Source: Bifidobacterium longum subsp. longum JCM 1217 (GTDB lineage: Bacteria > Actinomycetota > Actinomycetes > Actinomycetales > Bifidobacteriaceae). From it: a DNA stretch of 32,000 nucleotides. A program made the translations under genes and the position numbers. The DNA lies in NCBI RefSeq assembly GCF_000196555.1, contig NC_015067.1, positions 2,280,001-2,312,000 of the forward strand. The letters run 5' to 3'. Positions 4,474 to 32,000 of this stretch are shown here, one piece after another. The notes below the pieces were generated by a model, which had not been told where the DNA came from, did not search any database, and saw nothing but the letters and a program-made list of their open reading frames with translations. How positions within the stretch are numbered: position 1 is the stretch's first letter; every line of letters starts with the position of its first letter.

Positions 4474-7540
<3,067 letters not shown>

Positions 7541-7969: not shown

Positions 7970-9497
<1,528 letters not shown>

Positions 9498-10650: not shown

Positions 10651-13717
<3,067 letters not shown>

Positions 13718-14146: not shown

Positions 14147-15674
<1,528 letters not shown>

Positions 15675-16140: not shown

Positions 16141-16253
16141 AGCTTGTCGGCCCTGCGTTCATCTCTCGGCAACCACACTGCCGGCGCACAATCGGCGCAT
16201 GACAGCGCTCCGTCATCGGATTTCGTTCATGAATCGCGGGTATACCTGTAGTT

Positions 16254-17009: not shown

Positions 17010-17023
17010 CCCTCAGCATAACG

Positions 17024-17085
17024 AAAGCGCCGGTGGGTGGGTTAAGCAACTGATGATTGTCGGTTAACCACCCACCGGCGCTTTT
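17024..17085. terminator. Long hairpin between the convergent sirtuin and ilvA genes, probably a bidirectional terminator.
   Basis: AAAGCGCCGGTGGGTGGGTTAA (17024..17045) pairs with TTAACCACCCACCGGCGCTTT (17064..17084), with one bulged G and an 18-nt loop. TTTT follows on the plus strand and TTTCGTT on the minus strand. Confidence 0.75.
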
Positions 17086-17154
17086 GCGCCACCTCCCGCC
17101 AGCGGGAGGTATTGGAGCACACTTCTGCGCGGCTTCCCGCCAGCGGTATTGGAA

Positions 17155-18420
17155 TCAGTAGATGCGCTTGGGCTGGAATCCGGCTTCCCTGAGTGCCGCG
17201 AGGATGCGGTCGATGTGCTCGGGGCCGTTGGTCTCGACCGTGACGCCGAGAGACACCGCGTTGGTGTAGTGGCCGGATGCCTTGAACTGGTCGTGATCAA
17301 GCTGAATGACGTTGGCGCGCTGCTCGGCAAGCAGGGTGGCCACCTTGACGAGCTGGCCCGGAGTATCCGGCAGCTCGACCTCGAAGTTCATGATGCGGCC
17401 GCGGGCGATCATACCTTTCTGAATCACCGCACCCATGGTCACGGTGTCGATATTGCCGCCGGACATAATCGGAACCACCACGTGCGGGCCGGTGGCGGCG
17501 GCGAACTTGCGCGAACGCAGGTTCAGGTGTTCCAGCGCAGCCAGCGAAACGGCGCCGGCCGCCTCGACCACCAGCTTATGCTTCTCGAGCATGAGCAGAA
17601 TCATTTCGTTGATGTCGCGCTCGGTGACGGTGACCAGATCGTCCAGGAACTCGTTAATCAGAGCGAAGGGCAGGTCGCCGGGGTGCTTGACCGCAACACC
17701 TTCGGCGGAGGTAACCACATGGTCAGCCGGAGACACACGACCCGCGGCCAGCGAGTCCTTCCAGGCCGGTGAGCCCTCCGGAATCGCACCGATTACGCGC
17801 ACTTCAGGCTTGAATGTCTTGATGGCGAGCGCCACGCCGGCACCCAGGCCACCACCACCGAGCGGCACGACCACGTCAGTGACGTTCGGCACGTCTTCAA
17901 GGATCTCCAGACCGATGGTGCCTTGGCCGCAGATGACTTCGTAATCGTCGAATGGCGGCACGTAAATCATGCCTTCCTTGTCGGCGAGCTCAGCAGCGTG
18001 GGCGGCGGATTCATCGAACACATCGCCGTACAGCACCACGTCGGCACCGTAGGCCTTGGTGGCATCGACCTTCAGCGGCGGGGTGATCTGCGGCATGCAG
18101 ATGGTGGCCTTGGCTCCACGCTCGCGGGCCGCATAGGCCACACCCTGGGCATGGTTGCCGGCAGACGCGGTGACGATGCCGTGAGCGATCTGCTCTTCGG
18201 TGAGCGAAGCAATCTTGTTATAGGCACCGCGGATCTTGAAGGATCCGGTGACCTGCAGGTTTTCCGGCTTCAGGAGAATCTCATGGCCGGTCATCTCGCT
18301 CAGCACCGGAGAAGGAATGATCTCCGTGTGGCGGGCAGTGCCTTTGAGTCGTTCGGCGGCCAGCTTCAGTTCGGCTGCATGATCACGTTGCAGCGCCTTC
18401 AAAACATCCTTTTGTTCCAT
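17155..18420 (-). CDS. ilvA: Threonine ammonia-lyase (threonine dehydratase), PLP-dependent with a C-terminal ACT-like domain (421 aa).
   Basis: It has the PLP-lysine motif GSFKIRGA and the glycine-rich loop PLGGGGLGAG. The start is moved to MEQKDVLKAL (ATG 18420). The 38-codon upstream extension in the track ORF has no family support. Confidence 0.88.
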   Translation of the reverse strand: MEQKDVLKALQRDHAAELKLAAERLKGTARHTEIIPSPVLSEMTGHEILLKPENLQVTGSFKIRGAYNKIASLTEEQIAHGIVTASAGNHAQGVAYAARERGAKATICMPQITPPLKVDATKAYGADVVLYGDVFDESAAHAAELADKEGMIYVPPFDDYEVICGQGTIGLEILEDVPNVTDVVVPLGGGGLGAGVALAIKTFKPEVRVIGAIPEGSPAWKDSLAAGRVSPADHVVTSAEGVAVKHPGDLPFALINEFLDDLVTVTERDINEMILLMLEKHKLVVEAAGAVSLAALEHLNLRSRKFAAATGPHVVVPIMSGGNIDTVTMGAVIQKGMIARGRIMNFEVELPDTPGQLVKVATLLAEQRANVIQLDHDQFKASGHYTNAVSLGVTVETNGPEHIDRILAALREAGFQPKRIY

Positions 18421-18532
18421 AGCTTTCCATTGTAAGCACCACAATGCCGAGAGACACCAGCTATCTCGCTTCACAGAGGTACATTCGGCCTTTTGCAGAC
18501 AGCTATCTGTTTTCATAGGGGTACCGAGAAGC

Positions 18533-18581
18533 AAAAACCCCGGGTATAAGCCTTGATTTTCAATGCTTATACCTGGGGTTT
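18533..18581 (-). terminator. Rho-independent terminator downstream of the GH13 gene at 18668..20491.
   Basis: AACCCCGGGTATAAGC pairs with GCTTATACCTGGGGTT (16-bp stem, one G-U pair). A run of five U (TTTTT) follows on the minus strand, from the AAAAA at 18533..18537. Confidence 0.8.
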
Positions 18582-18667
18582 CGACGTTACGGTACCTCTC
18601 TCAAGACAGATAGCATTTCGGGATAGCCCCGAAGTACCTCTTTGAGCGGAGAAAGGCACTCAATGCA

Positions 18668-20491
18668 CTACAACTGGATGACGGCTGCCTCCCACGGGTC
18701 GAGCTCGCGGTTGGCAAGGGAGGCCACGGTGTGCGGAGCGTCATACGTGCTGATCACCACATTCGGCTCGGCGATTCCGACGGCGGCTAGTTCGGCAGCC
18801 TCACGTGGCAGGTCAACGGTTCGACTGGACATATTGACTACGACCAACAACTTCTCAGCGTCGAGCTCACGGGTAAAGGCATAGACGTGCGGATCAGCGG
18901 CGTCAATCAGTCGCCAGTCGCCGGCGGCCACGACCGGGCTGTTGTGACGCAGCGCAACGAGTTGCTTGTAGAAGGAGTACACCGAATCCGGATCATCGAA
19001 TTCACCGGCGGCGTTGATCTCGGCATGATTCGGATTCACGGAAATCCATGGCTCAGTGGCGGCGTCCGGAGCGGTGAAACCGGCGTAGCCGGAACCGTCC
19101 CATTGCATCGGAGTACGCGCGTTGTCACGGCTGCGCGCGGCCAGACCGGCCATCATTGACTCAGACGACTGCACCTTGGCCTCCTCGACCCTCTGCCGGT
19201 AGGCATTCAAGGATTCAAGGTCACGGTACTGGTCGAGACGCGTGAAGTGGGCGTCGGTCATGCCCAGTTCCTCACCCTGATAGATGTACGGGGTGCCGCG
19301 GTGCATGTGCAGCATCAGGCCAAGTGCCTTGGCCGAACGGACGCGGGATTCCTCCGCGGAGTCGTCGCCCCAGCGGGAGACCACGCGCGGCTGATCATGA
19401 TTGCCGGTGAACAAGCTGGCCCATCCTGCGTTCTGCACGGCAGTCTGGTAACCGGCCATAATGCTCTTGAATTTCGGCAGGTCAAGCGGCAGCGGCTTCC
19501 ACTTGGTACCTTCGCAATCAAAATCAACATGCTCGAACAGGAAGAGCATGTCCAATTCACCGTTGCCCGGATCAGTGATGTGCTCGTTACGCTGAGCCGT
19601 GACGCCTGGCGCCTCGCCCACAGTCAGGAAGCCTTCACGCCCCTCGAATACCTCACGTCGCATTTCAGCCAGGAATTCATCCTGACGGGGGCCGTCCGCA
19701 CAGAACGGATTCGGGTTGGAATAGCCCTCCTCGCCCACAGGAAGATCCTCAAGCTCCGAGCCGTACTCGCCCGGCAGCTTGCCGTTCGAATCGGTGCGCT
19801 TGGAGATCAGGGTGATGACGTCCATGCGGAAGCCGTCGACGCCTCGGTCAAGCCACCAGTTCATCATGTCGTACACAGCGCGGCGCACGGCAGGGTTCTC
19901 CCAGTTGAGGTCCGGCTGCTTCTTCGAGAACTGATGCAGGAAGTATTCGCCACGCTCGGGGCAGTATTCCCATGCGGAGCCGCCAAAGTAGGAGCCCCAC
20001 TGATTGGGCTCGGCGCCGGGCTCGCCGGGCGTGGTGCCGGGACGAGCCGGACGCCACCAATACCAGTCGGCGTGTTCGTCGTCTTTGTTCTTGGATGCTT
20101 CAAACCAGGCGTGTTCATCGGAAGTGTGATTGACAACAAGATCCATCACGATCTTGAGCCCACGCTTGTGGGCCTCGGCCAGCAGCTCGTCCATATCGTC
20201 GAGCGTGCCGAACAGAGGATCAATGTCCTGATAGTCGGAAATGTCATAGCCGTTGTCGTCTTGCGGAGACTTATAGACCGGGGATAGCCACAGCACATCC
20301 ACGCCAAGATCAGCTAAGTAATCAAGACGCGACGTGATGCCCTTAAGATCGCCGAATCCATCGCCGTTCGTGTCTTGGAAAGAGCGCGGGTAAATCTGAT
20401 AGACCACCGCGTTGGACCACCACGGATTGGGGGTGGCGCCGTTGGTGCGGATGGCGTCGGGGATTATTGCGCGGTTGAAAGTAGTCATCAT
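18668..20491 (-). CDS. GH13 alpha-glucosidase / oligo-1,6-glucosidase type (607 aa).
   Basis: It has the N-terminal WWSNAVVYQIYPRSFQDTNGDGFGDLKG and the GH13 regions DLVVNHTSDEH, GVDGFRMDVI, VGEAPG and FTGNHDQPR. AGGAG lies only 3 nt before the first ATG, so the second ATG at 20488 may be the real start. Confidence 0.92.
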   Translation of the reverse strand: MMTTFNRAIIPDAIRTNGATPNPWWSNAVVYQIYPRSFQDTNGDGFGDLKGITSRLDYLADLGVDVLWLSPVYKSPQDDNGYDISDYQDIDPLFGTLDDMDELLAEAHKRGLKIVMDLVVNHTSDEHAWFEASKNKDDEHADWYWWRPARPGTTPGEPGAEPNQWGSYFGGSAWEYCPERGEYFLHQFSKKQPDLNWENPAVRRAVYDMMNWWLDRGVDGFRMDVITLISKRTDSNGKLPGEYGSELEDLPVGEEGYSNPNPFCADGPRQDEFLAEMRREVFEGREGFLTVGEAPGVTAQRNEHITDPGNGELDMLFLFEHVDFDCEGTKWKPLPLDLPKFKSIMAGYQTAVQNAGWASLFTGNHDQPRVVSRWGDDSAEESRVRSAKALGLMLHMHRGTPYIYQGEELGMTDAHFTRLDQYRDLESLNAYRQRVEEAKVQSSESMMAGLAARSRDNARTPMQWDGSGYAGFTAPDAATEPWISVNPNHAEINAAGEFDDPDSVYSFYKQLVALRHNSPVVAAGDWRLIDAADPHVYAFTRELDAEKLLVVVNMSSRTVDLPREAAELAAVGIAEPNVVISTYDAPHTVASLANRELDPWEAAVIQL

Positions 20492-20611
20492 TGGCTCCTT
20501 ATTGATATCTATATTGCTCGTTGCTCACAGTCTAAAAATTGGCGAATTACATTCCCATTGGAGAACTGCGTTGGTGTGCCGGAAAATAAATATCAATCGG
20601 CATATGCGCTT

Positions 20612-22474
20612 TCATGATTGCACCCGGAAAACACGCAGTCGGCCGTACTCGATCTCGCAAGTATGGGTTTCTCCCGGATTCATATCAATCGTCGCACCAT
20701 GGTCATCGATGATGCGGCAAGAGCGACCGCTAGCCGTAATAATGCCGATTTGTGGCTGCCGGCGCAATCCGACGAAAGCGATGACCTGTTCTGCGCCGAA
20801 TCTTGCTGTGACACCGAGCGCATAGTCCGTATGTTCGGGGTCATTGAGCAGTGACGCAATGACTGGTCGGGCCGGCTCATCAGGACGCGGTAATGTACCA
20901 TCTTCGGCAAGTAAATCACGCAAGACAGCCGCATCAGTGTGACCGCAGGCATCGGAACAATACACTGGTCCGCCGCTAAGCAATCGGAGCACGGCATGGA
21001 CTCGCGCATGGGGATGCTCCGTCCAGAACATGTCCCAATCACAGTGGTACAGCTCCCCCATCAGCAGTGCACAGTATGCGTTCTGGATAAGGTGTTCGCC
21101 CAGCGAATCAGGATTGTGCGGTAGATAGTCGTCGCTACTACGGGTGATTGGCGATGAAGGACGATGCCAATAATCCTCCGGTGCCATGCCCATGCAGTTA
21201 ATCAATGCGCCGCCGAATCGTCGTGAGGTCACTTCATCAAGCGCCTGATGGCGTCCCCAGGTGGCTTCACCGTAACTTTCGGTGCCACGAACCATTACTG
21301 ACGTGGAACTTTGCGAATCCACTTTGACGAAATCGACGCCGGCTTCGGCGAGTTCGCCGTCCCAGGCATCCCAGAACTGTGCGGGTTGTTCAGCACGACT
21401 TCCAGGAATCAGGCAACCATTCGCCGTGGTGGTTATTGCGGTCGGGCAGCTGGCCGCGGCTACACCCGATTCGTCCAAACCATTCCAATAGCCTTGGAAC
21501 GCCTGCCACACGCCTACGCTGCGCACGCCATAGTGCGTTTTGAGCAGCGCAATGGTGTGGGCAAGCCCGTGGGGGAAACGTTGGCGATCCGCGCCAAAGT
21601 CGATCAGGGTTTCCTTTGTGCGATCCGTGTTGGACCAACCGTCATCGATAAGCACCCAGGAAATGGGCACATGCTTGGCTTGGAACTCCTCCATCTTGTT
21701 GACGATAGCCTGCTCGTTGACATCTCGCCCCAATGAATCCCAAGTACACCATCCCAACCCGGTGAGCGCATCCGGGAATGGACGCTCCTTACGGGTGCGA
21801 ATACCCAGCTGGCGTGCTGCCGTTTGTGTGGCAGCTCGAATGGCCATATACGGGTCGGATGCGCAAGCGATATATGCGGCAGTGTCACATAGAGTCGTGC
21901 GACCAACCCGGTTGGAAGACAGCACGAGCCGCAAAGCCGTGTCATCAGATTCTGTTGCGGGCTGCCCACTGAAATCAGCCCGAATATCCGTGCCGCAGAT
22001 AGCGACCAACACTAGCCACTCGGCATCTTCGGCATCGTTGTTGCGGCGTAACAATAACTGCGTGCGTTCAGGCAGTTCAGATGGTGTACGCACCCAGGTC
22101 GGGCGCATCCACCACTCCTTGTGCTGGTATAGCGCCAGCATGGTGTCATCGTTGCCGCTGTCGACGCCGGCCATGGTGAGCGACACGTCAATCGCATGGT
22201 GGGGCTCAAACGCTTGTTGTTCCTGAAAGGCAGCGGCGCGGTCCTTGGGCTGGGGTGCATGCGCGTTCACATCGATACGCCAGAGTCGCACCTGAGCATC
22301 ACCCTGGATACCCGCACTGGACGTGCACTCGTCTTCGCATGATTCGGGAACGATTGTGACGGCTTCTACCGGCAGTTCACAGATTGCCGAAGCCTGTTCG
22401 CCATAGACGGCACGACCGGTATCAAGATGGGCCGTTACCGTGCGAACGGTTATTGGACAGGTTTCGGCAATCAT
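20612..22474 (-). CDS. GH36-clan glycosidase of the Sip1 (seed imbibition) / raffinose-synthase type, putative alpha-galactosidase (620 aa).
   Basis: It has the motifs GWCTWDS, VLIDDGW, DFVKVDSQ and HCDWDMFW, which are characteristic of that family. The start is moved to MIAETCPITV (ATG 22474), 8 nt after AAGGAG. The track ORF start overlaps the upstream gene. Confidence 0.8.
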   Translation of the reverse strand: MIAETCPITVRTVTAHLDTGRAVYGEQASAICELPVEAVTIVPESCEDECTSSAGIQGDAQVRLWRIDVNAHAPQPKDRAAAFQEQQAFEPHHAIDVSLTMAGVDSGNDDTMLALYQHKEWWMRPTWVRTPSELPERTQLLLRRNNDAEDAEWLVLVAICGTDIRADFSGQPATESDDTALRLVLSSNRVGRTTLCDTAAYIACASDPYMAIRAATQTAARQLGIRTRKERPFPDALTGLGWCTWDSLGRDVNEQAIVNKMEEFQAKHVPISWVLIDDGWSNTDRTKETLIDFGADRQRFPHGLAHTIALLKTHYGVRSVGVWQAFQGYWNGLDESGVAAASCPTAITTTANGCLIPGSRAEQPAQFWDAWDGELAEAGVDFVKVDSQSSTSVMVRGTESYGEATWGRHQALDEVTSRRFGGALINCMGMAPEDYWHRPSSPITRSSDDYLPHNPDSLGEHLIQNAYCALLMGELYHCDWDMFWTEHPHARVHAVLRLLSGGPVYCSDACGHTDAAVLRDLLAEDGTLPRPDEPARPVIASLLNDPEHTDYALGVTARFGAEQVIAFVGLRRQPQIGIITASGRSCRIIDDHGATIDMNPGETHTCEIEYGRLRVFRVQS

Positions 22475-22505
22475 TGGCGTAACTCCTTGGTGTTCTTCAA
22501 TGAGA

Positions 22506-24176
22506 TTATGCTGGCAAGGCCCAGACGGTAGCAGCTGGAGGAACGCTCTCGACCTGAGTGTTCGCCTGCACAGTCGCGTCAGACACAAGTAGCACGGTCA
22601 TCGGCTGCGGCAAGGCGACTGGTTGACTGTCAGAGAAGTTCGCCATCACAACCATGCCGGACGGCAAGCGCCAACCAAGCAGCGGCGCCGGACACTCTTC
22701 GTTGGTAAGCCACGAGAACTGGAAGTCCGTGCCGTTGGCCACCCACTGTTTGCGCAATGCGACAGCAGCACAATACAGGTGCAGGACGGAAGCCCCGTCA
22801 CCAATCTGACGATTAGTGGCATACTGCGCAAACCATGCCGGCTGGGGCAGCCACGAAGCACCGGTGGCATTGAAGCCGAACGCCGGGCCGTCTGACTGCC
22901 ACGGCAGCGGTACGCGGCAACCGTCGCGCCCCTTGAAATAATGACCGGAACGTTCCCAATTGGGATCCTGAATTTCATCTTCGGTCAAATCAAAGTCCTC
23001 CGGCAAACCAAGCTCTTCACCCTGATACACAAAGGCGGTACCTGGCAGGCCGAGCATCACCAGCGCTGCTGCACGGGCACGACGAGCGGCGAGCGCGGGG
23101 TCAATCGGCGGATTCGTGCCGTTGGACGTCACCCACTGCTCGATGTTTGCACCGCTCGGCAGTCCGAGACGCGAGGCGATACGTGGCACATCGTGGTTGC
23201 CGAGCACCCAGGTGGGGGCGGTTTCGGCAGCGAGAGCATAGCGATGCGTGCGCTCAATCGTGGTGCGGTATTCTTCGCGATTCCAGGCGGCCTTTGACAT
23301 GGAGAAGTCGAATACGGCACCAAGTTCATCAGGCTTGGCGTATTGGAAAATACGGGTGGTGAATGGCGACCACGATTCGCCGACCGCATACTTGGCTGGC
23401 GTGTACTGATTGAACAGGTCGCGCCATTCACGGTAGATATCATGCACGGCGTCGCGGTCCCAGAGCGGATCGGAGCCATCGGTAGCCTGTGGAGACATCA
23501 GTGTCGGGTCGATACGGTCGCGCAGCGGCTCACGCAGGTCTTTGGCCAGACCGTGCGAGACATCGATGCGGAAACCGTCCACACCGCGATCGCACCAGAA
23601 TGTGAGTACACGCAGGAACTCATGCCGCACCTCGGGATTGTCCCAATTGAGGTCCGGCTGCTCCTTGGCGAACAGATGCAGGTAGTACCAGCCGTCTCCA
23701 CACGACTCCCATGCGGAACCGCCGAAGTTACTCAGCCAGTTGGTAGGCGGCAATTCGCCGTGCTCCCCCTTGCCCTGCCGGAACACATACCGTTGTGCCG
23801 CTTCCGATTCCGGACCTTGAGCCAGGGCCTCTTGGAACCAACGGTGCTGATCGGACGTGTGGTTCGGCACGATGTCCACGATGATGCCGATACCGCGTTC
23901 GTGCGCTTTGGCCACTAATTCGTCGAACTGATCGAGTGTGCCAAGGCGGGGATCCACATCACAATAGTCGGCAACATCATAACCTCCATCCGCCAGCGGC
24001 GATGGATAGAATGGAGAAAGCCAGAGCGCGTCCACCCCGAGCGCCTGCAGATAGTCGAGACGATCGATCACGCCTTGGAGATCACCGTTGCCGTCTCCAT
24101 TGGCATCGCTGAATGAGCGGGGGTAAATCTGGTAGATGACGGCGTCGCGCCACCAGTCATTGTTGGTGAAAGTCAT
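22506..24176 (-). CDS. GH13 alpha-glucosidase / oligo-1,6-glucosidase type (556 aa), paralogue of 18668..20491.
   Basis: It has WWRDAVIYQIYPRSFSDANGDGNGDLQG and the GH13 regions DIVPNHTSDQH, GVDGFRIDVSHG, VGESW and LGNHDVPR. Confidence 0.92.
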   Translation of the reverse strand: MTFTNNDWWRDAVIYQIYPRSFSDANGDGNGDLQGVIDRLDYLQALGVDALWLSPFYPSPLADGGYDVADYCDVDPRLGTLDQFDELVAKAHERGIGIIVDIVPNHTSDQHRWFQEALAQGPESEAAQRYVFRQGKGEHGELPPTNWLSNFGGSAWESCGDGWYYLHLFAKEQPDLNWDNPEVRHEFLRVLTFWCDRGVDGFRIDVSHGLAKDLREPLRDRIDPTLMSPQATDGSDPLWDRDAVHDIYREWRDLFNQYTPAKYAVGESWSPFTTRIFQYAKPDELGAVFDFSMSKAAWNREEYRTTIERTHRYALAAETAPTWVLGNHDVPRIASRLGLPSGANIEQWVTSNGTNPPIDPALAARRARAAALVMLGLPGTAFVYQGEELGLPEDFDLTEDEIQDPNWERSGHYFKGRDGCRVPLPWQSDGPAFGFNATGASWLPQPAWFAQYATNRQIGDGASVLHLYCAAVALRKQWVANGTDFQFSWLTNEECPAPLLGWRLPSGMVVMANFSDSQPVALPQPMTVLLVSDATVQANTQVESVPPAATVWALPA

Positions 24177-24276
24177 ATCGTTCCCCTGTCCGATTGCTCG
24201 GTACGTATGGTTTTACCAGTATGGCCGCACGAAACACTGTTCCGGCGGCCATACCCTACATCCTCTTGCCTTCGGA

Positions 24277-25101
24277 TCAGCCCTTAACCGAGCCGGCAAG
24301 CATGGCGCGGATGAAGTAGCGCTGGAGGAAGATGAACAGGATCATCGTCGGTGCCATGATGAGCAGTGCGCCCGCGTTGAGCAGCACCACGTCGGTCTGA
24401 TACTGGCCAACGAACGACTGTAGGGCACCTGCCATCGTGCGCTTGTTCGGGTCGTTCTCCAACACCACAGCCAACAGGAACTGGTTCCAGGTGGCCAGGA
24501 AGGTCAGAATACCGAGCGAGGAGATGGCTGGCAGTGCCAACGGCAGCTGAATGGAACGGAACGTGCGCAGATGGCCTGCACCATCGATGGATGCGGCTTC
24601 GATCAGATCACGCGGCATCTGCTCGAAGCAGGAGCGCATCCACACAATACCGAACGGAATATTCAGGCCGATGAGCGGCAGGATCAGGGCAAGACGGGTA
24701 TTCAGCAAGCCCATGCCACTGATCTCGTAGTACAGCGGAGTGACCAAGGTTTCGAACGGAATGGTCAGACCGACGAGGAACAGCACGTAGATCAGGCCCT
24801 TGCACGGCACCTTGAGCTGAGCGAAGGCATAACCGCCGAGCGAGCAGAAGATCACCACGCAGGGCACGACCACGATCACCAGAATGCAGCTGTTGAGCAG
24901 CAGCGGGGTGATGTTTGCCATGTTCCAGGCGTCGATGAAGTTCTCCCAGTGCGGGTGGGCAGTGAACTGGATACCTTCGGGCATGGAACCTTGCGGCTGC
25001 AATGCCGCGGAGAGCATGCTCAGGAACGGCAGTACGCAGAAGAGGACGGTCAGAGCGAGCATCGCCGTGCCGGTGATGCGAACGGCTTTGGATTGCTGCA
25101 T
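24277..25101 (-). CDS. Carbohydrate ABC transporter permease, MalG-like (274 aa).
   Basis: It is multi-pass hydrophobic with the EAA loop EAASIDGAGHLRTFRSIQLPLALP. The start at MQQSKAVRITG (ATG 25101) lies 2 nt after the stop of the upstream permease gene, which suggests translational coupling. Confidence 0.88.
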   Translation of the reverse strand: MQQSKAVRITGTAMLALTVLFCVLPFLSMLSAALQPQGSMPEGIQFTAHPHWENFIDAWNMANITPLLLNSCILVIVVVPCVVIFCSLGGYAFAQLKVPCKGLIYVLFLVGLTIPFETLVTPLYYEISGMGLLNTRLALILPLIGLNIPFGIVWMRSCFEQMPRDLIEAASIDGAGHLRTFRSIQLPLALPAISSLGILTFLATWNQFLLAVVLENDPNKRTMAGALQSFVGQYQTDVVLLNAGALLIMAPTMILFIFLQRYFIRAMLAGSVKG

Positions 25102-25103
25102 GG

Positions 25104-26015
25104 TCACTGCTCCTTTCCGTTGACCAGACGCTGCAGAGGTCCGACGACCAGCAGCACGAGAATCATCAGGGTGACGGCGAGTGCGGAGGCCAAGCCAACG
25201 CTCTGCTGGGTGAAGGCCAAGCGGTAGACCTGCACGCCGGGCACCATGGTGGAGGTGCCGGGGCCGCCCTGAGTGGACATGTACACCACGTCGAAGCTGG
25301 CGAGCGCGGAGATGATGGTCATGGTCAGGCATACGCCGATTTGGCCGCGCAGACCGGGCAACGTGATGGAGAAGAGCTGACGCCACCAGCCGGCACCGTC
25401 AAGACTTGCTGCCTCGTACAGGGACTGGTCGATGCCGCCGATGCCCGAGAGCAAGAGCACCACACAGAAGCCGAGCTGCAGCCAGAAACCAATCACGCCT
25501 ACCGCGTTCAGGGAGGTGGATTGGTCGCCGAGCCACACGTGGGCGAAGTCGCCGAGGCCTACTGCGCGCAGCAGCTGATTGGCGGTGCCCTTGTCGGCCA
25601 GCATCCAGGTCCAGGCCACACCGGCTGCAGCGCCTGGGATAACGCGCGGCAGGAACAGGCAAACCTGCGCGAAGGAACGACCGACCTTGGACTTCATGTC
25701 TTTGATGAGCACGGCAATGATCAGGCCGAGCACAATCGGGATGATGGAGAAGAAGATGATCAGGTAGAAGGAGTGCAGAATCGATCCGTACAGATCGGGG
25801 TCGGTGAACACGGTGATGTAGTTTTCGACACCGATGAAGGTGCTAGCATCGATACCGTTCCACTCGTAGAACGAGTACCAGATGGTCTGAATGATCGGCC
25901 ACAACTCGAAGGCGATGTAGAACACAAGCGCCGGAGCGAGGAAAAGCAGGCTGACCAGACCGAGGGACATATTGCGCTTGGGCTTGACCGCCTTGGCTGC
26001 CTTATGGGAATCCAT
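25104..26015 (-). CDS. Carbohydrate ABC transporter permease, MalF-like (303 aa).
   Basis: It has the EAA loop EAASLDGAGWWRQLFSITLPGL. The start is chosen at MDSHKAAKAVKPKRNMSLG (ATG 26015). ATG 26063 is an alternative start. Confidence 0.85.
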   Translation of the reverse strand: MDSHKAAKAVKPKRNMSLGLVSLLFLAPALVFYIAFELWPIIQTIWYSFYEWNGIDASTFIGVENYITVFTDPDLYGSILHSFYLIIFFSIIPIVLGLIIAVLIKDMKSKVGRSFAQVCLFLPRVIPGAAAGVAWTWMLADKGTANQLLRAVGLGDFAHVWLGDQSTSLNAVGVIGFWLQLGFCVVLLLSGIGGIDQSLYEAASLDGAGWWRQLFSITLPGLRGQIGVCLTMTIISALASFDVVYMSTQGGPGTSTMVPGVQVYRLAFTQQSVGLASALAVTLMILVLLVVGPLQRLVNGKEQ

Positions 26016-26147
26016 GATTGTCACCACGCTTTGCTGGTTTGGTGTGAACTGGGAATCGAACATCGCACACAACGTCGTGCGCGCGATGGGAAGGAACCAG
26101 GCGGAGCGGGAAAAAGGGAAGAACACTCCGCCCGGTAAGTGCAAGGG

Positions 26148-27473
26148 TTACTTGACCTCCTTCTCGTACTGAGCCTGAATGGATTCGACGAATGCCTTGG
26201 GGGTCATCGTGCCGTCAATCAGGGACTGGAAGCCGGGGATAATGGCGCTGGCCTGCATACCTGCGGTGGCGTTGTTGATGTAGTCGGTGGTGTTACCGGT
26301 CTTCACCAGACCTTCGTAGGCGGTAAGGACCTGGCCGAGAAGCTGGTTATCGGTGCTCGGAGTCTCGCCTTCGCCGACCGGCGGGTAGCCGTTGTCAACT
26401 GCGATCTGGCGGGCTTCGTCGGACTGGAGGAAGTCGAGGAAGGCGGCTGCAGCGTTCTTGTTCTTGGCGTTGGCCGGGATACCGAAAGCGGTCACGGCGT
26501 TGGCTGCGGCAGAACCGGAATCGGCCTTTTCGCCGGGGAAGGCGATCCAGCCGGCGTCATCGCCAAGTGCATCGTTGATGGAGGCGGAGTACCAGCTGCC
26601 GGAGGGGAAGAACAGGGCTTCGCCGTTGCAGAAGCGGCTCAGTGCAGTGGAACCGTCAAGGGCGAGCGCGTCGGAGGAGAAGTAACCGGCATCCTGCCAG
26701 TCCTTGATCTTCTGTGCAGCCTTCACGGCACCGTCGGTGTTGAAGGTGGCGCCATCCTTCTGGATAATCCAATCCTGCACGGTATCGCGACCCTCATAGT
26801 TGGTGAGCAATGCCTGGTAGATGTAGGAAGTGCCGCCTTCCTTGGCCGGCATCATCATGGCGAGCTTGCCAGCGTCGGAGGCCTTCTTCATATCGGCCTC
26901 GAGCTCTTCGACAGTGGCCGGAGCCTCGGTGATGCCGAGTTCCTTGGCGACTTTCTTGTTCCAGTACAGGCCGGTCATCGAGACACCGTCCGGCACTGCG
27001 TAGAGGCTGCCGGAACCGATCTTACCGTCGGAGCCCACGCGGTAGACCTGAGTCTGGGAATCCGGCAGCTTCCAACCGTAAGCATCGGCGTAAGCGTCAA
27101 GATTGACGACATGGTTGCCACGCACAGCGGAGTTGATGTCGGTGATACGGGCAATGTCCGGGGTGTCGGCGGCGGAGATGATGCGCGGGCCATTCTGCTG
27201 GGAGGTGTTGTCCGGATCGTAGGTGGCCTTGATGGTGATGTTCGGGTACTTCTTCTGGAAGGCTTCGATCAGCTGGTCATCAAAGGTCTTCAGGCCAGCG
27301 CCGTCCCACAGCTTGAGCTCATACTTGGTATCGCCAAGATCAGTGCTCACCGCTTCGGTTTCGGTGTTGGCTTTGTTGCTGGACGAGCCCGGGCCGCAAG
27401 CGGCGACGGATGCCAGGCATGCCACAGACATCAGACCGGCAATAACGGTTTTGGCGGTTCGTTCGATCCTCAT
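26148..27473 (-). CDS. Sugar ABC transporter solute-binding lipoprotein (441 aa), here called SBP1.
   Basis: It has a signal peptide with a lipobox (LASVAAC) and the features of a family-1 extracellular solute-binding protein. A GAAAGGA ribosome-binding site lies upstream. It is the first gene of the operon. Confidence 0.9.
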   Translation of the reverse strand: MRIERTAKTVIAGLMSVACLASVAACGPGSSSNKANTETEAVSTDLGDTKYELKLWDGAGLKTFDDQLIEAFQKKYPNITIKATYDPDNTSQQNGPRIISAADTPDIARITDINSAVRGNHVVNLDAYADAYGWKLPDSQTQVYRVGSDGKIGSGSLYAVPDGVSMTGLYWNKKVAKELGITEAPATVEELEADMKKASDAGKLAMMMPAKEGGTSYIYQALLTNYEGRDTVQDWIIQKDGATFNTDGAVKAAQKIKDWQDAGYFSSDALALDGSTALSRFCNGEALFFPSGSWYSASINDALGDDAGWIAFPGEKADSGSAAANAVTAFGIPANAKNKNAAAAFLDFLQSDEARQIAVDNGYPPVGEGETPSTDNQLLGQVLTAYEGLVKTGNTTDYINNATAGMQASAIIPGFQSLIDGTMTPKAFVESIQAQYEKEVK

Positions 27474-27530
27474 TGATCATTCCTTTCTTCCTTCCGGGCG
27501 ATCCCGGCTATGTCTTCCTTGGCTATCTCG

Positions 27531-27591
27531 GCTTAGCGTATTTGCTAAGCGCTTATGCATGAGGATAACAGATGTCGAACCGGTTCGTCAA
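27531..27591 (-). promoter_or_regulatory. Candidate promoter and LacI-type operator of the SBP1 operon.
   Basis: On the minus strand, TTGACG (27586..27591) is followed by a 17-18 nt spacer and TATCCT (27562..27567). The perfect palindrome TAAGCGCTTA (27546..27555) follows immediately. It overlaps the inverted repeat GCTTAGC-N6-GCTAAGC (27531..27550). Confidence 0.5.
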
Positions 27592-27633
27592 ATCCGCAAC
27601 ACGCAAACAAATGGCCGATTCCCGAAGAAATGA

Positions 27634-27668
27634 GGAAGGCTTGACGTTCCCCATAGGCAAGCACTTCC
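27634..27668 (-). terminator. Candidate terminator after the GH172-type gene.
   Basis: GGAAGGCTTG (27634..27643) pairs with CAAGCACTTCC (27658..27668), with one bulge and a 14-nt loop. TCATTTCTTC follows on the minus strand. Confidence 0.35.
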
Positions 27669-27704
27669 TTCTCGCGAAATTGCAACATCGGTCCCTTAAA
27701 TACC

Positions 27705-27714
27705 TAAGCGCTTA
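27705..27714. promoter_or_regulatory. Second copy of the TAAGCGCTTA palindrome.
   Basis: The 12-mer CTAAGCGCTTAT is shared with the site at 27545..27556. This copy lies 6 nt beyond the stop of the GH172-type gene and about 120 bp upstream of the SBP1 promoter. Confidence 0.4.
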
Positions 27715-27719
27715 TTCAT

Positions 27720-28838
27720 TCACCTAGGATGACGTTTCGAAGGCTCGGGCAGCTCGGGAAAAATTGAATGTGGCTCAATTTGATACCAGTACGCCACGCT
27801 AGACACATCATCCTGACGCTCAAATGCACCTTCATATCCTGAACCAATTTGTTGAAGCGTGACTCTAAGCTCACTATCAAACCTGATGGGATCAGGAATA
27901 TGCCATCGGTACAAGCCACGCATAGGTGGACAATAATCGTCATGATATTGGTTTGCTATAGCCCCATCGCGCACAGAATAAAATGGATATCCTACATATG
28001 GGGCACAAAAAGTACGCTCGCGCGTATGACCATCTCGCTGCTCAGCGAAGCTCCATGCACCGCCAAAATAATCTTCGGTGCCGGTACTACACACTGTGGG
28101 ATAATCGTTATCGCCATCTAGGAAAAACTTAATCTCTCCCTCACCCCACCAATATCGTTGCAACGTAGAAATAGCAAGATATGTGCCGACGTAATGGCCC
28201 CGTCCGCTGACTCCATCGAGGATTACATAGTCCTCGCCTAAAGTAGTGATTGGCTGTCTGCGCCATTGCGCATGGAAATAAGCCATTTCACGGGAGGAAT
28301 ACGCATTACCCAATGCATAATCAATCTGATAAAACAAAGCCGGAATAGCATGAGCGTGGTCATTGCGCACTACGATACGTGCCCGTTTACGAAACGGCAT
28401 CGTGAAATAACAATTCATACCTCGTGTAGGTGCCACCACAATAGGCTCTGAGAACACATCGCAACTTTGTCCAAAGCCGCAACAGAAGAAGTCTCCTAGG
28501 GGACATTCCACAGAAGGTCGCTTTTCATCATCCCAATAGATGGCAAGCACCGCATCGCGCAGAACGTATCGATCAGCGTCACTGGTGCGATCCGTAACGG
28601 TAAACCACATGTGCCGAATACAACCGGGGCCTTCAATATCTGCCAATGTCACAGACTGCCCGGGAGCAATGTCATTCAAACACGGCTTTCCCTTGCGCGA
28701 CGGCCCCAACGGACCAGTTTCACGGCAACCAAAACCCTTGGCTCCCGTTGGGTTCTCCGCATTAATCGAACATGTTACTTCGTCGCGGACAGTCGGCAAA
28801 TCCGATAAAGTTCCCGCGTACGGTCCTGCCATCATCAT
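27720..28838 (-). CDS. DUF2961 / glycoside hydrolase family 172-type protein (372 aa).
   Basis: It has the family-typical blocks GPGCIRHMWFT, NCYFTMPF, FYQIDY and WWGEGEIKFFLDGDNDYPTVCSTGTEDYFGGAW. It has no signal peptide, so it is predicted to be cytoplasmic. AGGAG lies 9 nt before the ATG. GC content is lower than in the flanking operon. Confidence 0.7.
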   Translation of the reverse strand: MMMAGPYAGTLSDLPTVRDEVTCSINAENPTGAKGFGCRETGPLGPSRKGKPCLNDIAPGQSVTLADIEGPGCIRHMWFTVTDRTSDADRYVLRDAVLAIYWDDEKRPSVECPLGDFFCCGFGQSCDVFSEPIVVAPTRGMNCYFTMPFRKRARIVVRNDHAHAIPALFYQIDYALGNAYSSREMAYFHAQWRRQPITTLGEDYVILDGVSGRGHYVGTYLAISTLQRYWWGEGEIKFFLDGDNDYPTVCSTGTEDYFGGAWSFAEQRDGHTRERTFCAPYVGYPFYSVRDGAIANQYHDDYCPPMRGLYRWHIPDPIRFDSELRVTLQQIGSGYEGAFERQDDVSSVAYWYQIEPHSIFPELPEPSKRHPR

Positions 28839-28899
28839 AGGTTGACTCTCCTCAAATCAAGCGTCGCTAGCGAAAGCGGCATATAAGTTGAAGCTGTTT

Positions 28900-30228
28900 C
28901 TACCGCTTCGCTTCTTTGTCATATTGCGCCTGCACATTCTTTGTGAATTCCTGAGGCGTGATGCTGTTATCCAGCAGTAACTGGAAGTTAGGGATTAGCC
29001 CACTTGACTGCATTCCCGCAGTAGCATTATTAATGAAATCGCTAGTATGACCGCTCGTCAGCACGTCGGCATAGGCATCAAACATACTCTGCTGCAATGC
29101 GCTATTCGCCTTGAGATCCAAAGTAGATGATTTTGGCAAATAGCCAGAATTGTCAACAATAATCTGTTGCGCTTCGGCACTTTGCGTATAATCGAGGAAC
29201 GCCGCAGCAGCATCACGGTTCTTAGCATTCACCGGAATACCATAAAATGCACCTGCATTAGCAGCAACGTTCGGCTCATCTTCACTGGTGGCACCCGGGA
29301 AAGCAAAGAACTGAACATCATCACCCAGCGCTTTGGCCACAGTATCCAGATTCCAATTACCGCTCGGGAAAAATAGTCCTTCACCATTGCAGAACCTGCT
29401 CAGAGCAGTAGAGGCATCCACTGCGTTAACACCTTCAGGCATATATCCCTTGTTATTCCAATCCTGCAAGGTGGACGCAGCGTCCTGCGCCGCCTGATTG
29501 TCGAAGGTACCAGATTTCTGCAAAATCCAATTCTGCACATCTTCCGCAGAACTGTTATTAGCCATTAACGCCTGAAAGACAAAAGAGGTACCGCCATCCT
29601 TGGCATATGTCATCATCGGCAGTATGCCGGCATCCTTGGCTGTCTGCATATCCGCCTCAAACTCCTCGACAGAGGTAGGAGCTGCATCAATACCTAGCTG
29701 CTCGGCAAGCTTGGTATTGAAATAAATGCCAGTCACCGAATAGGAGTTCGGCAATGCGTACAAATCACCGCTGCCGAGCTTGCCATTTGAATCCACTCGA
29801 TACAATTCAGTCTGCGAATCGGGAACATCCCAGCCGTACGCATCCACATATGCCTCTAAAGACACCAAATGGTTGCCACGAACCGCTGAATTCATGTCGG
29901 TGACGCGGGCGATATCCGGCGCATCTTTTGCTGAAATCACACGCGGGCCATTTTGTCCAGAGACATTATCCGGATCATATTGTCCCGTGATGGTGATGTT
30001 TGGGTATTTCGCTTCGAACCCGGCAATCAGCGCCTCATCTACAGCCTTCAGACCCGCTCCATCCCACAAAGTCAGCTCATATTTTTTATTACCTAAATCA
30101 GTGCTGACCTCAGTAGGATTTGTATCACTTCGTGAGCTACTTGCCGAGCCGGGACCACATGCAGTCAGACTTCCAGCGATAAATATCGCAGCAAGCGCCG
30201 CGCCGCTGTTACGCATAATCCTATTCAT
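28900..30228 (-). CDS. Sugar ABC transporter solute-binding lipoprotein (442 aa), here called SBP2, a paralogue of SBP1.
   Basis: It has a lipobox (GSLTAC) and a strong AAGGAGG site 6 nt before the ATG. By hand alignment, 79 of 111 residues match SBP1 over YEL(K/T)LWDGAGLK...LYA(V/L)P. The nucleotide composition is much less GC-rich. Confidence 0.9.
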   Translation of the reverse strand: MNRIMRNSGAALAAIFIAGSLTACGPGSASSSRSDTNPTEVSTDLGNKKYELTLWDGAGLKAVDEALIAGFEAKYPNITITGQYDPDNVSGQNGPRVISAKDAPDIARVTDMNSAVRGNHLVSLEAYVDAYGWDVPDSQTELYRVDSNGKLGSGDLYALPNSYSVTGIYFNTKLAEQLGIDAAPTSVEEFEADMQTAKDAGILPMMTYAKDGGTSFVFQALMANNSSAEDVQNWILQKSGTFDNQAAQDAASTLQDWNNKGYMPEGVNAVDASTALSRFCNGEGLFFPSGNWNLDTVAKALGDDVQFFAFPGATSEDEPNVAANAGAFYGIPVNAKNRDAAAAFLDYTQSAEAQQIIVDNSGYLPKSSTLDLKANSALQQSMFDAYADVLTSGHTSDFINNATAGMQSSGLIPNFQLLLDNSITPQEFTKNVQAQYDKEAKR

Positions 30229-30254
30229 CGGTTACCTCCTTGCATCCTCATCAT

Positions 30255-30358
30255 ATGCAATCGATATTTCTCTTTACTGTCACCATTTTTCGGCGGCAAT
30301 AAAATATATTTGCGATATCGATTACGCACATCGTACATCTTTTTGCGGAACCCGTCAA
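30255..30358 (-). promoter_or_regulatory. Candidate promoter and operators of the SBP2/GH172 transcription unit.
   Basis: On the minus strand, TTGACG (30353..30358) is followed by a 17-nt spacer and TACGAT (30330..30335). One nt later comes the pseudo-palindrome TGCGTAATCGATATCGCA (30311..30328, 14 of 18 positions symmetric). A related site, ATGCAATCGATAT, lies at 30255..30267. Confidence 0.5.
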
Positions 30359-30400
30359 CCTTGCATCACACCAATGGTGGCCTTAACTTCAAAATCCAGA

Positions 30401-30421
30401 TACAATACAATCGATTACGCA
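30401..30421 (+). promoter_or_regulatory. Candidate -10 element and operator in front of the cassette LacI gene.
   Basis: TACAAT (30401..30406) is followed directly by ACAATCGATTACGCA (30407..30421). ATCGATTACGCA is repeated exactly from 30317..30328, and AATCGATT is a perfect 8-bp palindrome. AGGAG lies at 30426..30430. Confidence 0.4.
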
Positions 30422-30435
30422 ATGCAGGAGATCCC

Positions 30436-31464
30436 ATGAGCGAACCAACAATCTATGAAGTAGCCAAGGAGGCTGGAGTCTCTGCGGCGACCGTATCTCG
30501 TGCAATCAACGGACGTGACCGCATATCGGAAACTACTAGGCAAAAGGTATTTGATGCATGTGCAAAGTTGGGGTTTTCAGCATCGAAAACAGCCTCCATG
30601 CTGCGAACGGGAAAGACAAATCGTATAGCACTTACCGTAGGTAACTCACTGGCTGGCTGGTTCAGTTCACAACTAGCCGAAGGCGTATATTCCGTGCTCG
30701 CATCCCAAGGATATGACTTGCTATCATACCGACTTGCAAACGCCGATCAAAGACGCGATTTCTTTTCCTCAATGCCAGTGAAGCGCAACGCAGACGCGGT
30801 CATCATCTCCTCCTTCGACATCAGCGAGACAGAGAGGCGAACCTTAGAACAACTCGGTATGCCAGTCATCGGTGTCAACACCATCGGGCTTACGGAACAG
30901 CGAGATATGATTTCCATCGGCGTAGACGAAATTATAGCAATGCGACAAACCGTTCATCAGCTCGCAGGACTGGGACATCGCAATATCGCCTTTATCTGCA
31001 AGCAGCAAGACAGTAACGGATTCATATGGGAAGCTGACCAACGTATAGAAGGGTTCCGTCTTGGCATGGCGGCTGAGGGACTCAACTTGCCCGACGGATA
31101 CATCATCGCAGTACAGGACAACGAATTTGCCGGAGCAGAGGCACTCAGTAGCCTGCTCGCACTCTCCCCTCGCCCAACCGCCGTATGCTGCATCAGCGAC
31201 GAGAATGCCATTCCTCTAGTCCATGCGCTTCGCTCATACGGATTCCGCGTACCTGAGGACATATCCGTCATCGGATTCGATGACTGGCCAATGGCACAAG
31301 CGCTCAATATATCAACCGTTCGGCACGACCCTCGGTCCTACGGAGCATTAGCGGCAGATGCCGCAATCCGATTATCACGAGGCGAAATTCTGACAGAAAG
31401 TTGCATCGTTGTTCCCACGACGCTCATGTTGCGCGGCACCACAGGCCCAGCACCTCGAGATTAA
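30436..31464 (+). CDS. LacI-family transcriptional regulator (342 aa), lower-GC cassette copy.
   Basis: It has the N-terminal HTH MSEPTIYEVAKEAGVSAATVSRAINGRDRISETTRQKV and a periplasmic-binding-protein-like sugar domain. The start is moved from the track ORF to the ATG at 30436, behind AGGAG. Confidence 0.9.
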   Translation: MSEPTIYEVAKEAGVSAATVSRAINGRDRISETTRQKVFDACAKLGFSASKTASMLRTGKTNRIALTVGNSLAGWFSSQLAEGVYSVLASQGYDLLSYRLANADQRRDFFSSMPVKRNADAVIISSFDISETERRTLEQLGMPVIGVNTIGLTEQRDMISIGVDEIIAMRQTVHQLAGLGHRNIAFICKQQDSNGFIWEADQRIEGFRLGMAAEGLNLPDGYIIAVQDNEFAGAEALSSLLALSPRPTAVCCISDENAIPLVHALRSYGFRVPEDISVIGFDDWPMAQALNISTVRHDPRSYGALAADAAIRLSRGEILTESCIVVPTTLMLRGTTGPAPRD

Positions 31465-31581
31465 ACATCGACAACGTCCGCATTTGATGATGTGCATATC
31501 ATTATTGCAACAGCGAAACAACAGGTACCAGCCAGAGGAAGGACGACCGGGTAACAGCCACAAGGCGGCCACCCATTCACC

Positions 31582-32000
31582 ATGAAACGCGCGACCATCA
31601 ACGACGTAGCTCTCACGGCCGGAGTCTCAACTTTTACCGCATCCCGCGCTTTGCGAGGTAAGGATCACGTGGCAGCAGCTACGCGGGATAAGGTGCTGAA
31701 AGCGGCCAAAGAGCTGAATTACACCGCGTCTCGCTCGGCGGCGGCGCTGGCAAGCGGACGCACCAATCGCATTGCCATGCTGGCTCGCGAACGGCTGGCC
31801 GGCTGGTTCATGGGCGAATTATTCGACGGGCTGTATGACGAACTGAGCCGCGCACGCTATGACTTGACCGTATACCGAGCCGGCAGCGTCGAGGAGCGTG
31901 CGGAATTCTTTACTCGGCTGCCAGCCAATCGTAACGCCGACGCCCTCATCGTATCCGGATTTTCCGCCACCGATGAGGAAGCCGACACGTTGGCCAGCAT
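31582..32000 (+). CDS. LacI-family transcriptional regulator, 5' partial (continues past the window end), high-GC copy.
   Basis: Not in the ORF track because there is no stop inside the window. Translation reads MKRATINDVALTAGVSTFTASRALRGKDHVAAATRDKVLKAAKELNYTASRSAAALASGRTNRIAMLARERLAGWFMGELFDGLYDE... An in-frame stop at 31552 excludes a longer N-terminus. It is a paralogue of 30436..31464. Confidence 0.85.
   Translation, partial: MKRATINDVALTAGVSTFTASRALRGKDHVAAATRDKVLKAAKELNYTASRSAAALASGRTNRIAMLARERLAGWFMGELFDGLYDELSRARYDLTVYRAGSVEERAEFFTRLPANRNADALIVSGFSATDEEADTLAS

Follow-up and report, generated by a model that had tools for sequence, protein, structure and literature searches.

The 32,000-nucleotide stretch of the Bifidobacterium longum subsp. 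longum JCM 1217 chromosome considered here (contig NC_015067.1, positions 2,280,001 to 2,312,000; hereafter the window, with its first letter as position 1) contains a melezitose-type (mel) sugar utilization locus in which three genes are interposed between the resident transport operon and its divergent LacI-type regulator. The three genes encode a glycoside hydrolase of family GH172, a second solute-binding protein (SBP2) and a second LacI-type regulator (LacI_c). The block is probably what remains of another, foreign operon of the mel family that was grafted into the melR1-melA control region, and its products, GH172, SBP2 and the regulator MelR2, would function together as proposed below; a probability of roughly 62% is assigned to this reading as a whole. 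The features on which the argument turns are as follows, with lengths in amino acids (aa) and guanine-cytosine content given as GC.

24277-26015, minus strand: two resident permeases of MelB/MelC type (Bbr_1858, Bbr_1859; BPD_transp_1)
26148-27473, minus strand: SBP1 (MelA), the resident mel binding protein, Bbr_1860 orthologue, within the genus-wide SBP1 clade in the tree
27474-27719: retained native mel control region (P_melA and two TAAGCGCTTA operators)
27720-28838, minus strand: GH172 (DUF2961), 372 aa, Bbr_1861 orthologue (PF11175)
28900-30228, minus strand: SBP2, CUT1-type solute-binding lipoprotein, 442 aa, Bbr_1862 orthologue (SBP_bac_1)
30229-30435: divergent control region of the cassette, 207 bp, GC 0.42, with two promoter-like sites and three LacI-type operators
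30436-31464, plus strand: LacI_c, 342 aa, orthologue of MelR2 (Bbr_1863), with Pfam LacI helix-turn-helix and Peripla_BP_3 domains
31582-32000, plus strand: LacI_n (MelR1), Bbr_1864 orthologue, 5' part only, cut by the end of the window

The gene calls of the initial annotation were all correct, including that of the third cassette gene as a DUF2961/GH172 enzyme (PF11175, E 2e-92), and its view of SBP2 and the cassette LacI as paralogues of their neighbors was borne out. SBP2 is 55% identical to SBP1, and LacI_c is 44% identical to LacI_n over the 137 aa inside the window and 36% identical at full length; judged from these alignments, both paralogies are real but old. LacI_c carries an N-terminal helix-turn-helix domain (PF00356, 1e-15) and an effector domain (PF13377, 4e-31), falls into one 90%-identity cluster with B. 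breve ABE96525.1 and matches Bbr_1863 in locus position also. SBP2 was recognized by PF01547 at 2.6e-28 and has the lipobox GSLTAC (LTAC); its best relative in the PDB, at an E value of only 4e-14, is too remote for ligand inference. No specific NCBIfam model was matched for GH172, SBP1 or SBP2. No permease open reading frame (ORF) lies within 27474-31581, the nearest being the resident genes at 24277-26015. The LacI_n gene starts 117 bp downstream of LacI_c, both on the plus strand. The exact GH172, SBP1 and GH13 proteins of the window are present on many complete B. longum genomes, as determined by exact-protein look-up.

Composition sets the block apart from its surroundings, here represented by ~35 kb of neighboring sequence and not by the whole genome. 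The GC content of positions 27474-31581 is 0.497 compared with 0.588 for positions 16000-27473, the lowest-GC 4-kb segment within 16-32 kb begins at 27501, and 100-bp bins inside and outside the block differ with a Mann-Whitney p value of 1e-15. GC at third codon positions (GC3) is 0.437 for GH172, 0.497 for SBP2 and 0.513 for LacI_c, against 0.59-0.83 for the adjacent mel genes and a mean of 0.772 (sd 0.081, minimum 0.588) for 18 neighboring B. longum genes; relative to these 18 genes, the cassette genes have z scores of -3.2 to -4.1 on GC3 and -3.7 to -5.2 on total GC. The intergenic spacers of the cassette are also low in GC (0.42-0.48). The tetranucleotide usage of the block correlated with that of the flank at 0.667, a value below those of all 15 flank control segments (0.712-0.825). 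The claim of a lower GC content between the sugar operon and its regulator, which had been based on spot counts, is therefore sustained by total GC, GC3, 100-bp bins and tetranucleotide usage alike.

To locate related loci, one genome per species was scanned with an alignment of SBP1 and SBP2 as query, and the matches were then mapped by tblastn. In at least 12 species of Bifidobacteriaceae the site is empty, with an orthologue of LacI_n directly divergent from an SBP1-permease-permease-GH13 operon. Such sites were observed in B. callitrichos, B. psychraerophilum, B. moukalabense, B. subtile, B. tibiigranuli and B. pullorum, as well as in Aeriscardovia, two Alloscardovia species and several adolescentis-like contigs, and usually lie beside a raffinose transporter and a ROK regulator. 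SBP2, LacI_c and GH172 are absent between the regulator and SBP1 in all of these empty-site loci. The only carriers of the cassette were B. longum, B. breve and, in rearranged form, B. saguinibicoloris.

The junctions of the block are consistent with insertion into this ancestral arrangement. P_melA is located on the minus strand at 27591-27562 and is accompanied by TAAGCGCTTA operators at 27546-27555 and 27705-27714 (repeat family D3), the second of which lies 159 bp upstream of the first and abuts the GH172 stop codon. The native promoter and operator block, TTGACGAACCGGTTCGA...TATCCT...CATAAGCGCTTAGCA, is also conserved in the empty-site species. Given that this block has been kept and that the second TAAGCGCTTA site abuts the GH172 stop codon, the insertion point can be assigned to the ancestral divergent region, with the upstream mel operator on one side of it and the LacI_n promoter on the other. 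The region upstream of LacI_n in the window lacks the operator-like site that is present there in empty-site species. No integrase or transposase ORF was found in the block and no long or convincing direct or inverted repeats flank it, and by strict definitions it is neither a mobile element nor a genomic island. Each junction spacer contains one copy of a 12-nt near-direct repeat (ATTGCAACATCG at 27679-27690 and ATTGCAACAGCG at 31504-31515, 11 of 12 bases identical, 3825 bp apart); this could be a microhomology involved in insertion but is short enough to have arisen by chance. A consensus scan of the minus strand revealed no terminator between GH172 and melA, and a hairpin in this spacer (~27671-27632), followed by UCAUUUCUUC, folds no better than shuffled sequence (z = 0.19).

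The phylogenetic source of the cassette was established from trees of its three genes, which are congruent. In each, the sequences of B. longum and B. breve group with that of B. saguinibicoloris, and this clade is sister to genes from bee-gut bifidobacteria with a bootstrap value of 100, while SBP1 and LacI_n form separate family-wide clades that include Alloscardovia and Aeriscardovia. The bee-gut genes belong to an intact operon, consisting of a LacI gene and SBP-permease-permease-GH13-GH172, that was observed in B. asteroides ESL0199, Bifidobacterium sp. H1HS16N and a metagenome contig (L110); B. mizhiense has an operon of the same type without GH172. The identities between this operon and the cassette are 57% for LacI, 63% for SBP (B. 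asteroides) and 66% for GH172, and the resident permeases of the window are 71-76% identical to those accompanying the SBP2-like protein in the bee-gut operons. Given the sister relationship with bee-gut genes at a bootstrap value of 100, SBP2 and LacI_c are not recent in-genome duplicates but rather xenologues from a second type of mel-like operon. Both group with the bee-gut operon and not with SBP1 or the native LacI, and recent duplication, which the initial annotation had named, in combination with universal presence of the cassette, as one outcome that would overturn its proposal, is thereby excluded. The proposal itself, in which a xenologous module was gained by horizontal transfer and came to lie in the intergenic control region of a related locus, is supported by the combination of composition, empty sites and congruent trees. 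The GC3 values of the bee-gut operons (0.49-0.69) are below those of the housekeeping genes of their hosts, which makes a lower-GC donor within Bifidobacteriaceae plausible. SBP2 matches at 82-93% identity (P0122, P0156) were considered as donor sequences and rejected, being truncated B. longum alleles in the same locus.

The control region between SBP2 and LacI_c was analyzed with a promoter scan and for operator-like sites.

30253-30269: third operator-like site, ATATGCAATCGATATTT, predicted, adjoining the SBP2 ribosome-binding site
30311-30328: central operator, TGCGATATCGATTACGCA, predicted, directly downstream of the -10 hexamer of P_SBP2
30358-30330, minus strand: promoter-like site P_SBP2
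30383-30411, plus strand: promoter-like site P_LacI_c
30406-30422: operator-like site, TACAATCGATTACGCAA, predicted, overlapping the -10 hexamer of the LacI_c promoter

All three predicted operators carry an AATCGAT core, palindromic with a central CG, and overlap or adjoin the promoter-like hexamers. When up to 3 mismatches are allowed, the palindrome TGCGTAATCGATTACGCA matches the window at the central site TGCGATATCGATTACGCA only, with 0 matches expected by chance. The half-site ATCGATTACGCA occurs in two exact copies, at 30317-30328 and 30410-30421 (repeat family D10). Given that TACAATCGATTACGCAA overlaps the -10 hexamer of its promoter, autoregulation of LacI_c is suggested. Sites matching TGCGATATCGATTACGCA occur at the same position in B. 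saguinibicoloris (TGCGTAATCGATATCGCA) and in the bee-gut operons (TGCAACCGATATTACA), and equivalents of ATATGCAATCGATATTT are found upstream of the SBP gene in both. The layout as a whole, with -35, -10 and operator in succession, one site near the start of the regulator and one near the SBP ribosome-binding site, is kept across species (B. saguinibicoloris, B. asteroides, Bifidobacterium sp. H1HS16N and B. mizhiense). Since B. saguinibicoloris and the bee-gut operons show the same layout, the cassette is considered to have arrived with its own control region.

In B. saguinibicoloris the gene order is LacI_n(-), SBP2, GH172, LacI_c(+), SBP1. The GC3 of the cassette is 0.90-0.97 in this species, equal to that of the flanks, the permease-less layout has been kept and the ORFs are intact. 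Given that this layout was maintained while GC3 rose to 0.90-0.97, long-term selection on the cassette can be argued. Comparison of B. longum with B. saguinibicoloris gave 86% identity for SBP2 versus 93% for SBP1 and 77% for LacI_c versus 85% for LacI_n.

Several points weigh against the operon-graft reading. A single entry into the common ancestor of B. longum and B. saguinibicoloris makes the low GC content in B. longum hard to explain. No closer low-GC donor was found among 5.8 billion proteins, and the trees are neighbor-joining trees (100 bootstraps, 18-25 sequences), not maximum-likelihood trees. The 61-bp spacer between SBP2 and GH172 contains no remnant of a permease or GH13 gene, and for this reason we infer, rather than observe, the pruning of these genes. 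In addition, SBP2 is disrupted in several B. longum contigs in which GH172 is intact, and thus may be dispensable in present-day strains. As an alternative to a single entry, two acquisitions from related donors can be considered; these would fit the different placement of LacI_c in B. saguinibicoloris, the greater divergence of the cassette pair than of the flank pair, and the empty site in B. callitrichos.

Within B. longum and B. breve the cassette was present in all ~35 contigs fetched. The exact GH172 sequence is indexed in >52,000 blocks of the assembly collection, the 442-aa SBP2 sequence of the window occurs on at least 1000 contigs, and another full-length SBP2 variant occurs on 337. 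The initial annotation had suggested comparing genomes for presence or absence of the block as a unit. Across species it is absent at the empty sites of at least 12; within species, no B. longum or B. breve contig with the mel operon but without the cassette was found in exact-protein look-ups with GH172, SBP1 and the downstream GH13, which retrieve near-identical alleles only. Among the genomes recovered by the species-representative scan, none represented B. longum, B. breve or B. infantis; the missing B. breve and B. infantis matches would fit DSM 20213 and ATCC 15697 as representatives, both of which are listed without MelR1 or MelR2 (PMC4746261).

Variation in SBP2 was observed in individual strains. 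In one B. longum strain an insertion sequence element with an rve-type transposase lies inside SBP2 (contig L114, 172-1248, ERZ28750145), other strains have truncated or frameshifted SBP2 genes of 299, 389 or 417 aa (contigs L013 and L106-L109 among them), and no SBP2 was called in L009/L017. GH172 is intact in the strains with a disrupted SBP2. Other members of the same GH172 subfamily, defined below by a serine, were found beside sugar-binding protein genes in a B. scardovii metagenome-assembled genome (L111, 6507-13953; SBP-GH172-SBP-LacI-permease-permease), and in B. scaligerum and B. olomucense (L040/L041, 4141-5190) GH172 lies just beyond a LacI_n-like regulator of a mel-like operon. Bifidobacterial mel/raf contigs were also encountered under the names of Collinsella, Anaerovoracaceae, Dysosmobacter, Senegalimassilia and Acidaminococcaceae metagenome-assembled genomes (L023, L030-L032, L035, L038), and probably represent binning contamination in public assemblies.

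These SBP2 lesions bear on an explanation in which the cassette is a partly decaying remnant. Here, SBP2 would not be part of a transporter, GH172 would act on sugars imported by SBP1 or otherwise, or have no role, and MelR2 would act mainly through transcription of melR1 and mel. Truncation or interruption of SBP2 in L009/L017, L013, L106-L109 and L114, set beside a GH172 gene that is intact in essentially all loci, is consistent with decay. So is the finding that MelR1, which follows MelR2 on the same strand after 117 bp, has lost the operator-like sites of the empty-site species. MelR2 reportedly exerts no more than "apparent indirect" control on mel (O'Connell et al. 2014), which would agree with this explanation as well. 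However, most contigs have a full-length SBP2, whether with the sequence of the window or as the variant, SBP2 is 86% conserved in B. saguinibicoloris although synonymous sites have fully turned over, and the operator and promoter architecture is conserved. The decaying-remnant explanation is thus regarded as unlikely, although it carries appreciable weight.

Enzymes of family GH172 hydrolyze alpha-D-furanosides with retention of configuration and assemble as oligomers of trimers. The GH172 protein of the window matched PF11175 over the whole profile (E 2.2e-92, 309 bits), with precomputed matches to GH172_1st, GH172_dom and GH172_2nd. Its nearest structure is 8ic8, ExoMA1 (E 5e-72, residues 12-365), the match to alphaFFase1 (7v1v) being weaker (E 5e-48). 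The acid/base and nucleophile glutamates and the -1 subsite residues of alphaFFase1 have been assigned (PMC8605356). Residues E233, E255, D256, W230 and W262 align with E270, E291, D292, W267 and W298 of alphaFFase1 and are invariant in 21 homologues; by this alignment, the acid/base is E233 and the nucleophile E255. No signal peptide was found in GH172, and the protein is predicted to be a cytoplasmic, retaining alpha-D-furanosidase.

The position that distinguishes fructofuranose from arabinofuranose is Gly299 in alphaFFase1, which leaves room for the 1-hydroxymethyl group, and Asn253 in ExoMA1, which blocks alpha-D-fructofuranose (PMC10509167). The equivalent residue here is Ser263, in the motif W-S-F, and serine is found in 21 of 21 subfamily members from bifidobacteria and Firmicutes. 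The enzyme thus has neither the alphaFFase1-type Gly nor the ExoMA1-type Asn, and from its sequence is an uncharacterized GH172 subtype that matches neither characterized type; the small side chain of Ser263 may leave fructofuranoside activity possible. A dietary oligosaccharide is tentatively favored as substrate over mycobacterial D-arabinan, given that a GH13 gene is co-operonic in the bee gut and that the locus here is one for alpha-glucosides and melezitose.

The same architecture could instead serve an alpha-D-arabinofuranoside, such as fragments of corynebacterial or mycobacterial D-arabinan, in place of an alpha-D-fructofuranoside of the type found in caramel or honey. That the closest structure is the alpha-D-arabinofuranoside-specific ExoMA1, and that p-nitrophenyl alpha-D-arabinofuranoside is cleaved by all characterized GH172 enzymes according to the literature, would agree with such a substrate. 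By contrast, the blocking Asn253 is replaced by the smaller Ser263 throughout the subfamily, and the genomic setting, with a co-operonic GH13 alpha-glucosidase in the bee gut and a melezitose/alpha-glucoside locus here, is not that of a D-arabinan locus with GH183 or GH116. An arabinofuranoside substrate is accordingly judged rather improbable.

An ancient tandem duplication of mel in the longum/callitrichos lineage, with subsequent divergence, loss of permease and GH13 genes and a low GC content arising from relaxed selection or low expression rather than from transfer, would account for the side-by-side paralogues SBP2/SBP1 and LacI_c/LacI_n, the host-like GC of the B. saguinibicoloris cassette (a further point against the operon graft) and the lack of mobile-element genes and long flanking repeats, but is highly improbable given that the SBP1/SBP2 and LacI_n/LacI_c splits are older in the trees than the divergence of Alloscardovia and Aeriscardovia from Bifidobacterium, that the cassette genes cluster with bee-gut operons at a bootstrap value of 100, that GH172 has no resident paralogue, that B. 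callitrichos, equally close to B. longum as B. saguinibicoloris, has an empty site, that intergenic cassette DNA too is low in GC (0.42-0.48), and that the tetranucleotide usage of the block deviates from that of the flank.

The locus has a counterpart in B. breve UCC2003, where the melezitose locus includes Bbr_1861 ("hypothetical protein"), Bbr_1862 (second SBP), Bbr_1863 (MelR2) and Bbr_1864 (MelR1) (PMC4746261; PMC9177967). The initial annotation knew of no description of such a permease-less three-gene module; it had in fact already been recorded as Bbr_1861/Bbr_1862/Bbr_1863. For MelR1, the melezitose regulator, Khoroshkin et al. (2016, PMC4746261) give a regulon of one operon and five genes; the regulon they give for MelR2 is a single two-gene operon with the label "unknown sugar utilization." No MelR1 or MelR2 orthologues are listed for B. 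longum NCC2705, B. infantis ATCC 15697 or B. breve DSM 20213 (PMC4746261). Given these listed strains and the strain-variable use of melezitose in B. breve known from the literature, the whole mel island is considered accessory. The placement of the block between a native operon and its native regulator therefore holds in that the empty sites show an insertion, and requires revision in that the "native" mel locus is itself accessory.

The window is 99.1% identical to B. breve CP045532.1 (L102) over 11.5 kb (window 20439-32000), cassette and flanks alike. Past the end of the window, identity between this B. breve sequence and a B. longum contig (L001) is 91-97% in the raf transporter genes and ~80% beyond. 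The decay from 99.1% to ~80% beyond the raf genes points to recent recombination between B. longum and B. breve across a tract of at least 12 kb, and the unit recently exchanged between these species is the entire island, not the cassette alone.

A model for the operon graft can be outlined as follows. The source would be a LacI gene with an SBP-permease-permease-GH13-GH172 operon from a lower-GC member of Bifidobacteriaceae, which would have entered the divergent control region between the MelR1 gene and melA. Redundant permease and GH13 genes would have been lost either before or after insertion, leaving a self-contained regulatory unit. LacI_c (MelR2) is predicted to bind the three AATCGAT-core operators and would keep the SBP2-GH172 transcript and its own gene repressed until a sugar binds. 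The surface lipoprotein SBP2 would then pass its ligand to the resident MelB/MelC permeases, so that one transporter would serve two specificities. In the cytoplasm, GH172 may remove an alpha-D-furanosyl residue, and resident alpha-glucosidases would complete the breakdown.

GH172 is widespread in B. longum and B. breve, both of major importance as gut commensals and as probiotics, and the present analysis gives the "hypothetical" Bbr_1861 a family and a catalytic apparatus. The insertion offers an evolutionary rationale for the mel layout of two regulators and two binding proteins, and concrete substrates are suggested for testing on an enzyme subfamily that lies outside both characterized GH172 types. 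A more far-reaching proposal can be made only tentatively and is doubtful as a whole: that an operon graft from a bifidobacterium of bee-gut type left a permease pair serving two independently regulated specificities, and that the Ser-type GH172 forms a third specificity class, acting for example on alpha-D-fructofuranosides of heated, caramelized or honeydew sugars. If true, this would connect a glycan of cooked food or honey with abundant bifidobacteria of the infant and adult gut. No new kind of system is implied, the horizontal gain of sugar modules and of accessory binding proteins being commonplace in bifidobacteria; what merits further attention is the Ser-type GH172 subfamily and the proposed use of one permease pair by two SBPs.

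Further features of the window are given below.

4188-4304, 4475-7540 and 7973-9497, minus strand: 5S, 23S and 16S genes of ribosomal RNA (rRNA) operon 1
10365-10481, 10652-13717 and 14150-15674, minus strand: 5S, 23S and 16S genes of rRNA operon 2
18668-20488, minus strand: GH13 of Agl1 type (Bbr_1855 = agl1)
20612-22474, minus strand: GH36-like/raffinose-synthase-like enzyme of MelE type (Bbr_1856 = melE)
22506-24176, minus strand: GH13 alpha-glucosidase of MelD type (Bbr_1857 = melD)

The two rRNA operons are complete and arranged in tandem on the minus strand (4188-15674), with identical bit scores and a period of 6177 bp. No transfer RNA genes were found in the window. The MelE-type gene has the lowest GC3 among non-cassette genes (0.588) and shares only 58-59% identity with the orthologues in B. 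saguinibicoloris and B. callitrichos, the adjacent permeases being ~95% identical; this gene has undergone unusually fast evolution or has a separate history. Antisense ORFs of 445 aa (26139-27476, plus strand) and 265 aa (25341-26138, plus strand) extend over SBP1 and a permease gene, and look like high-GC artifacts given that no gene was called at matching positions on related contigs.

Among known systems, the mel locus of B. breve UCC2003 is the same entity, with identical gene order and a MelR2 regulon whose size matches SBP2-GH172; what differs is that the searchable B. breve mel papers make no mention of the GH172 identity, the foreign composition, the empty sites or the full operon in the bee gut. 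The B. dentium alphaFFase1 cluster (BBDE_2038-2043; Kashima et al. 2021, PMC8605356) likewise combines a LacI regulator, GH172 and an ATP-binding cassette (ABC) importer in a Bifidobacterium, and the catalytic Glu pair and the -1 subsite Trp, Asp and Trp of alphaFFase1 are conserved in the GH172 of the window. By contrast, the B. dentium cluster encodes permeases of its own together with a GH32 beta-fructofuranosidase, the GH172 in it is distant, with 460 aa and Gly299, and the substrate is established there as difructose dianhydride I (DFA I)/inulobiose. ExoMA1 from Microbacterium arabinogalactanolyticum (8IC8, PMC10509167) is similar in length and has the same catalytic motifs, whereas its Asn253 excludes fructofuranose and its gene lies with those of GH183 and GH116 enzymes in a locus for D-arabinan degradation.

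The bee-gut operon provides, in its LacI, SBP and GH172, the closest outgroup of the cassette genes and has the promoter and three-operator layout in common with them. It differs in having its own two permeases and a GH13 gene between SBP and GH172 and in having no second mel-type operon adjoining it, and is itself uncharacterized. ABC importers in which several SBPs share one permease pair are known, for example HisJ and LAO with HisQMP. The mel locus resembles such importers in having two paralogous SBP genes beside one permease pair, the second SBP being without permeases of its own, but differs in that the accessory SBP came by transfer together with a repressor and a dedicated hydrolase, and would share the resident permeases.

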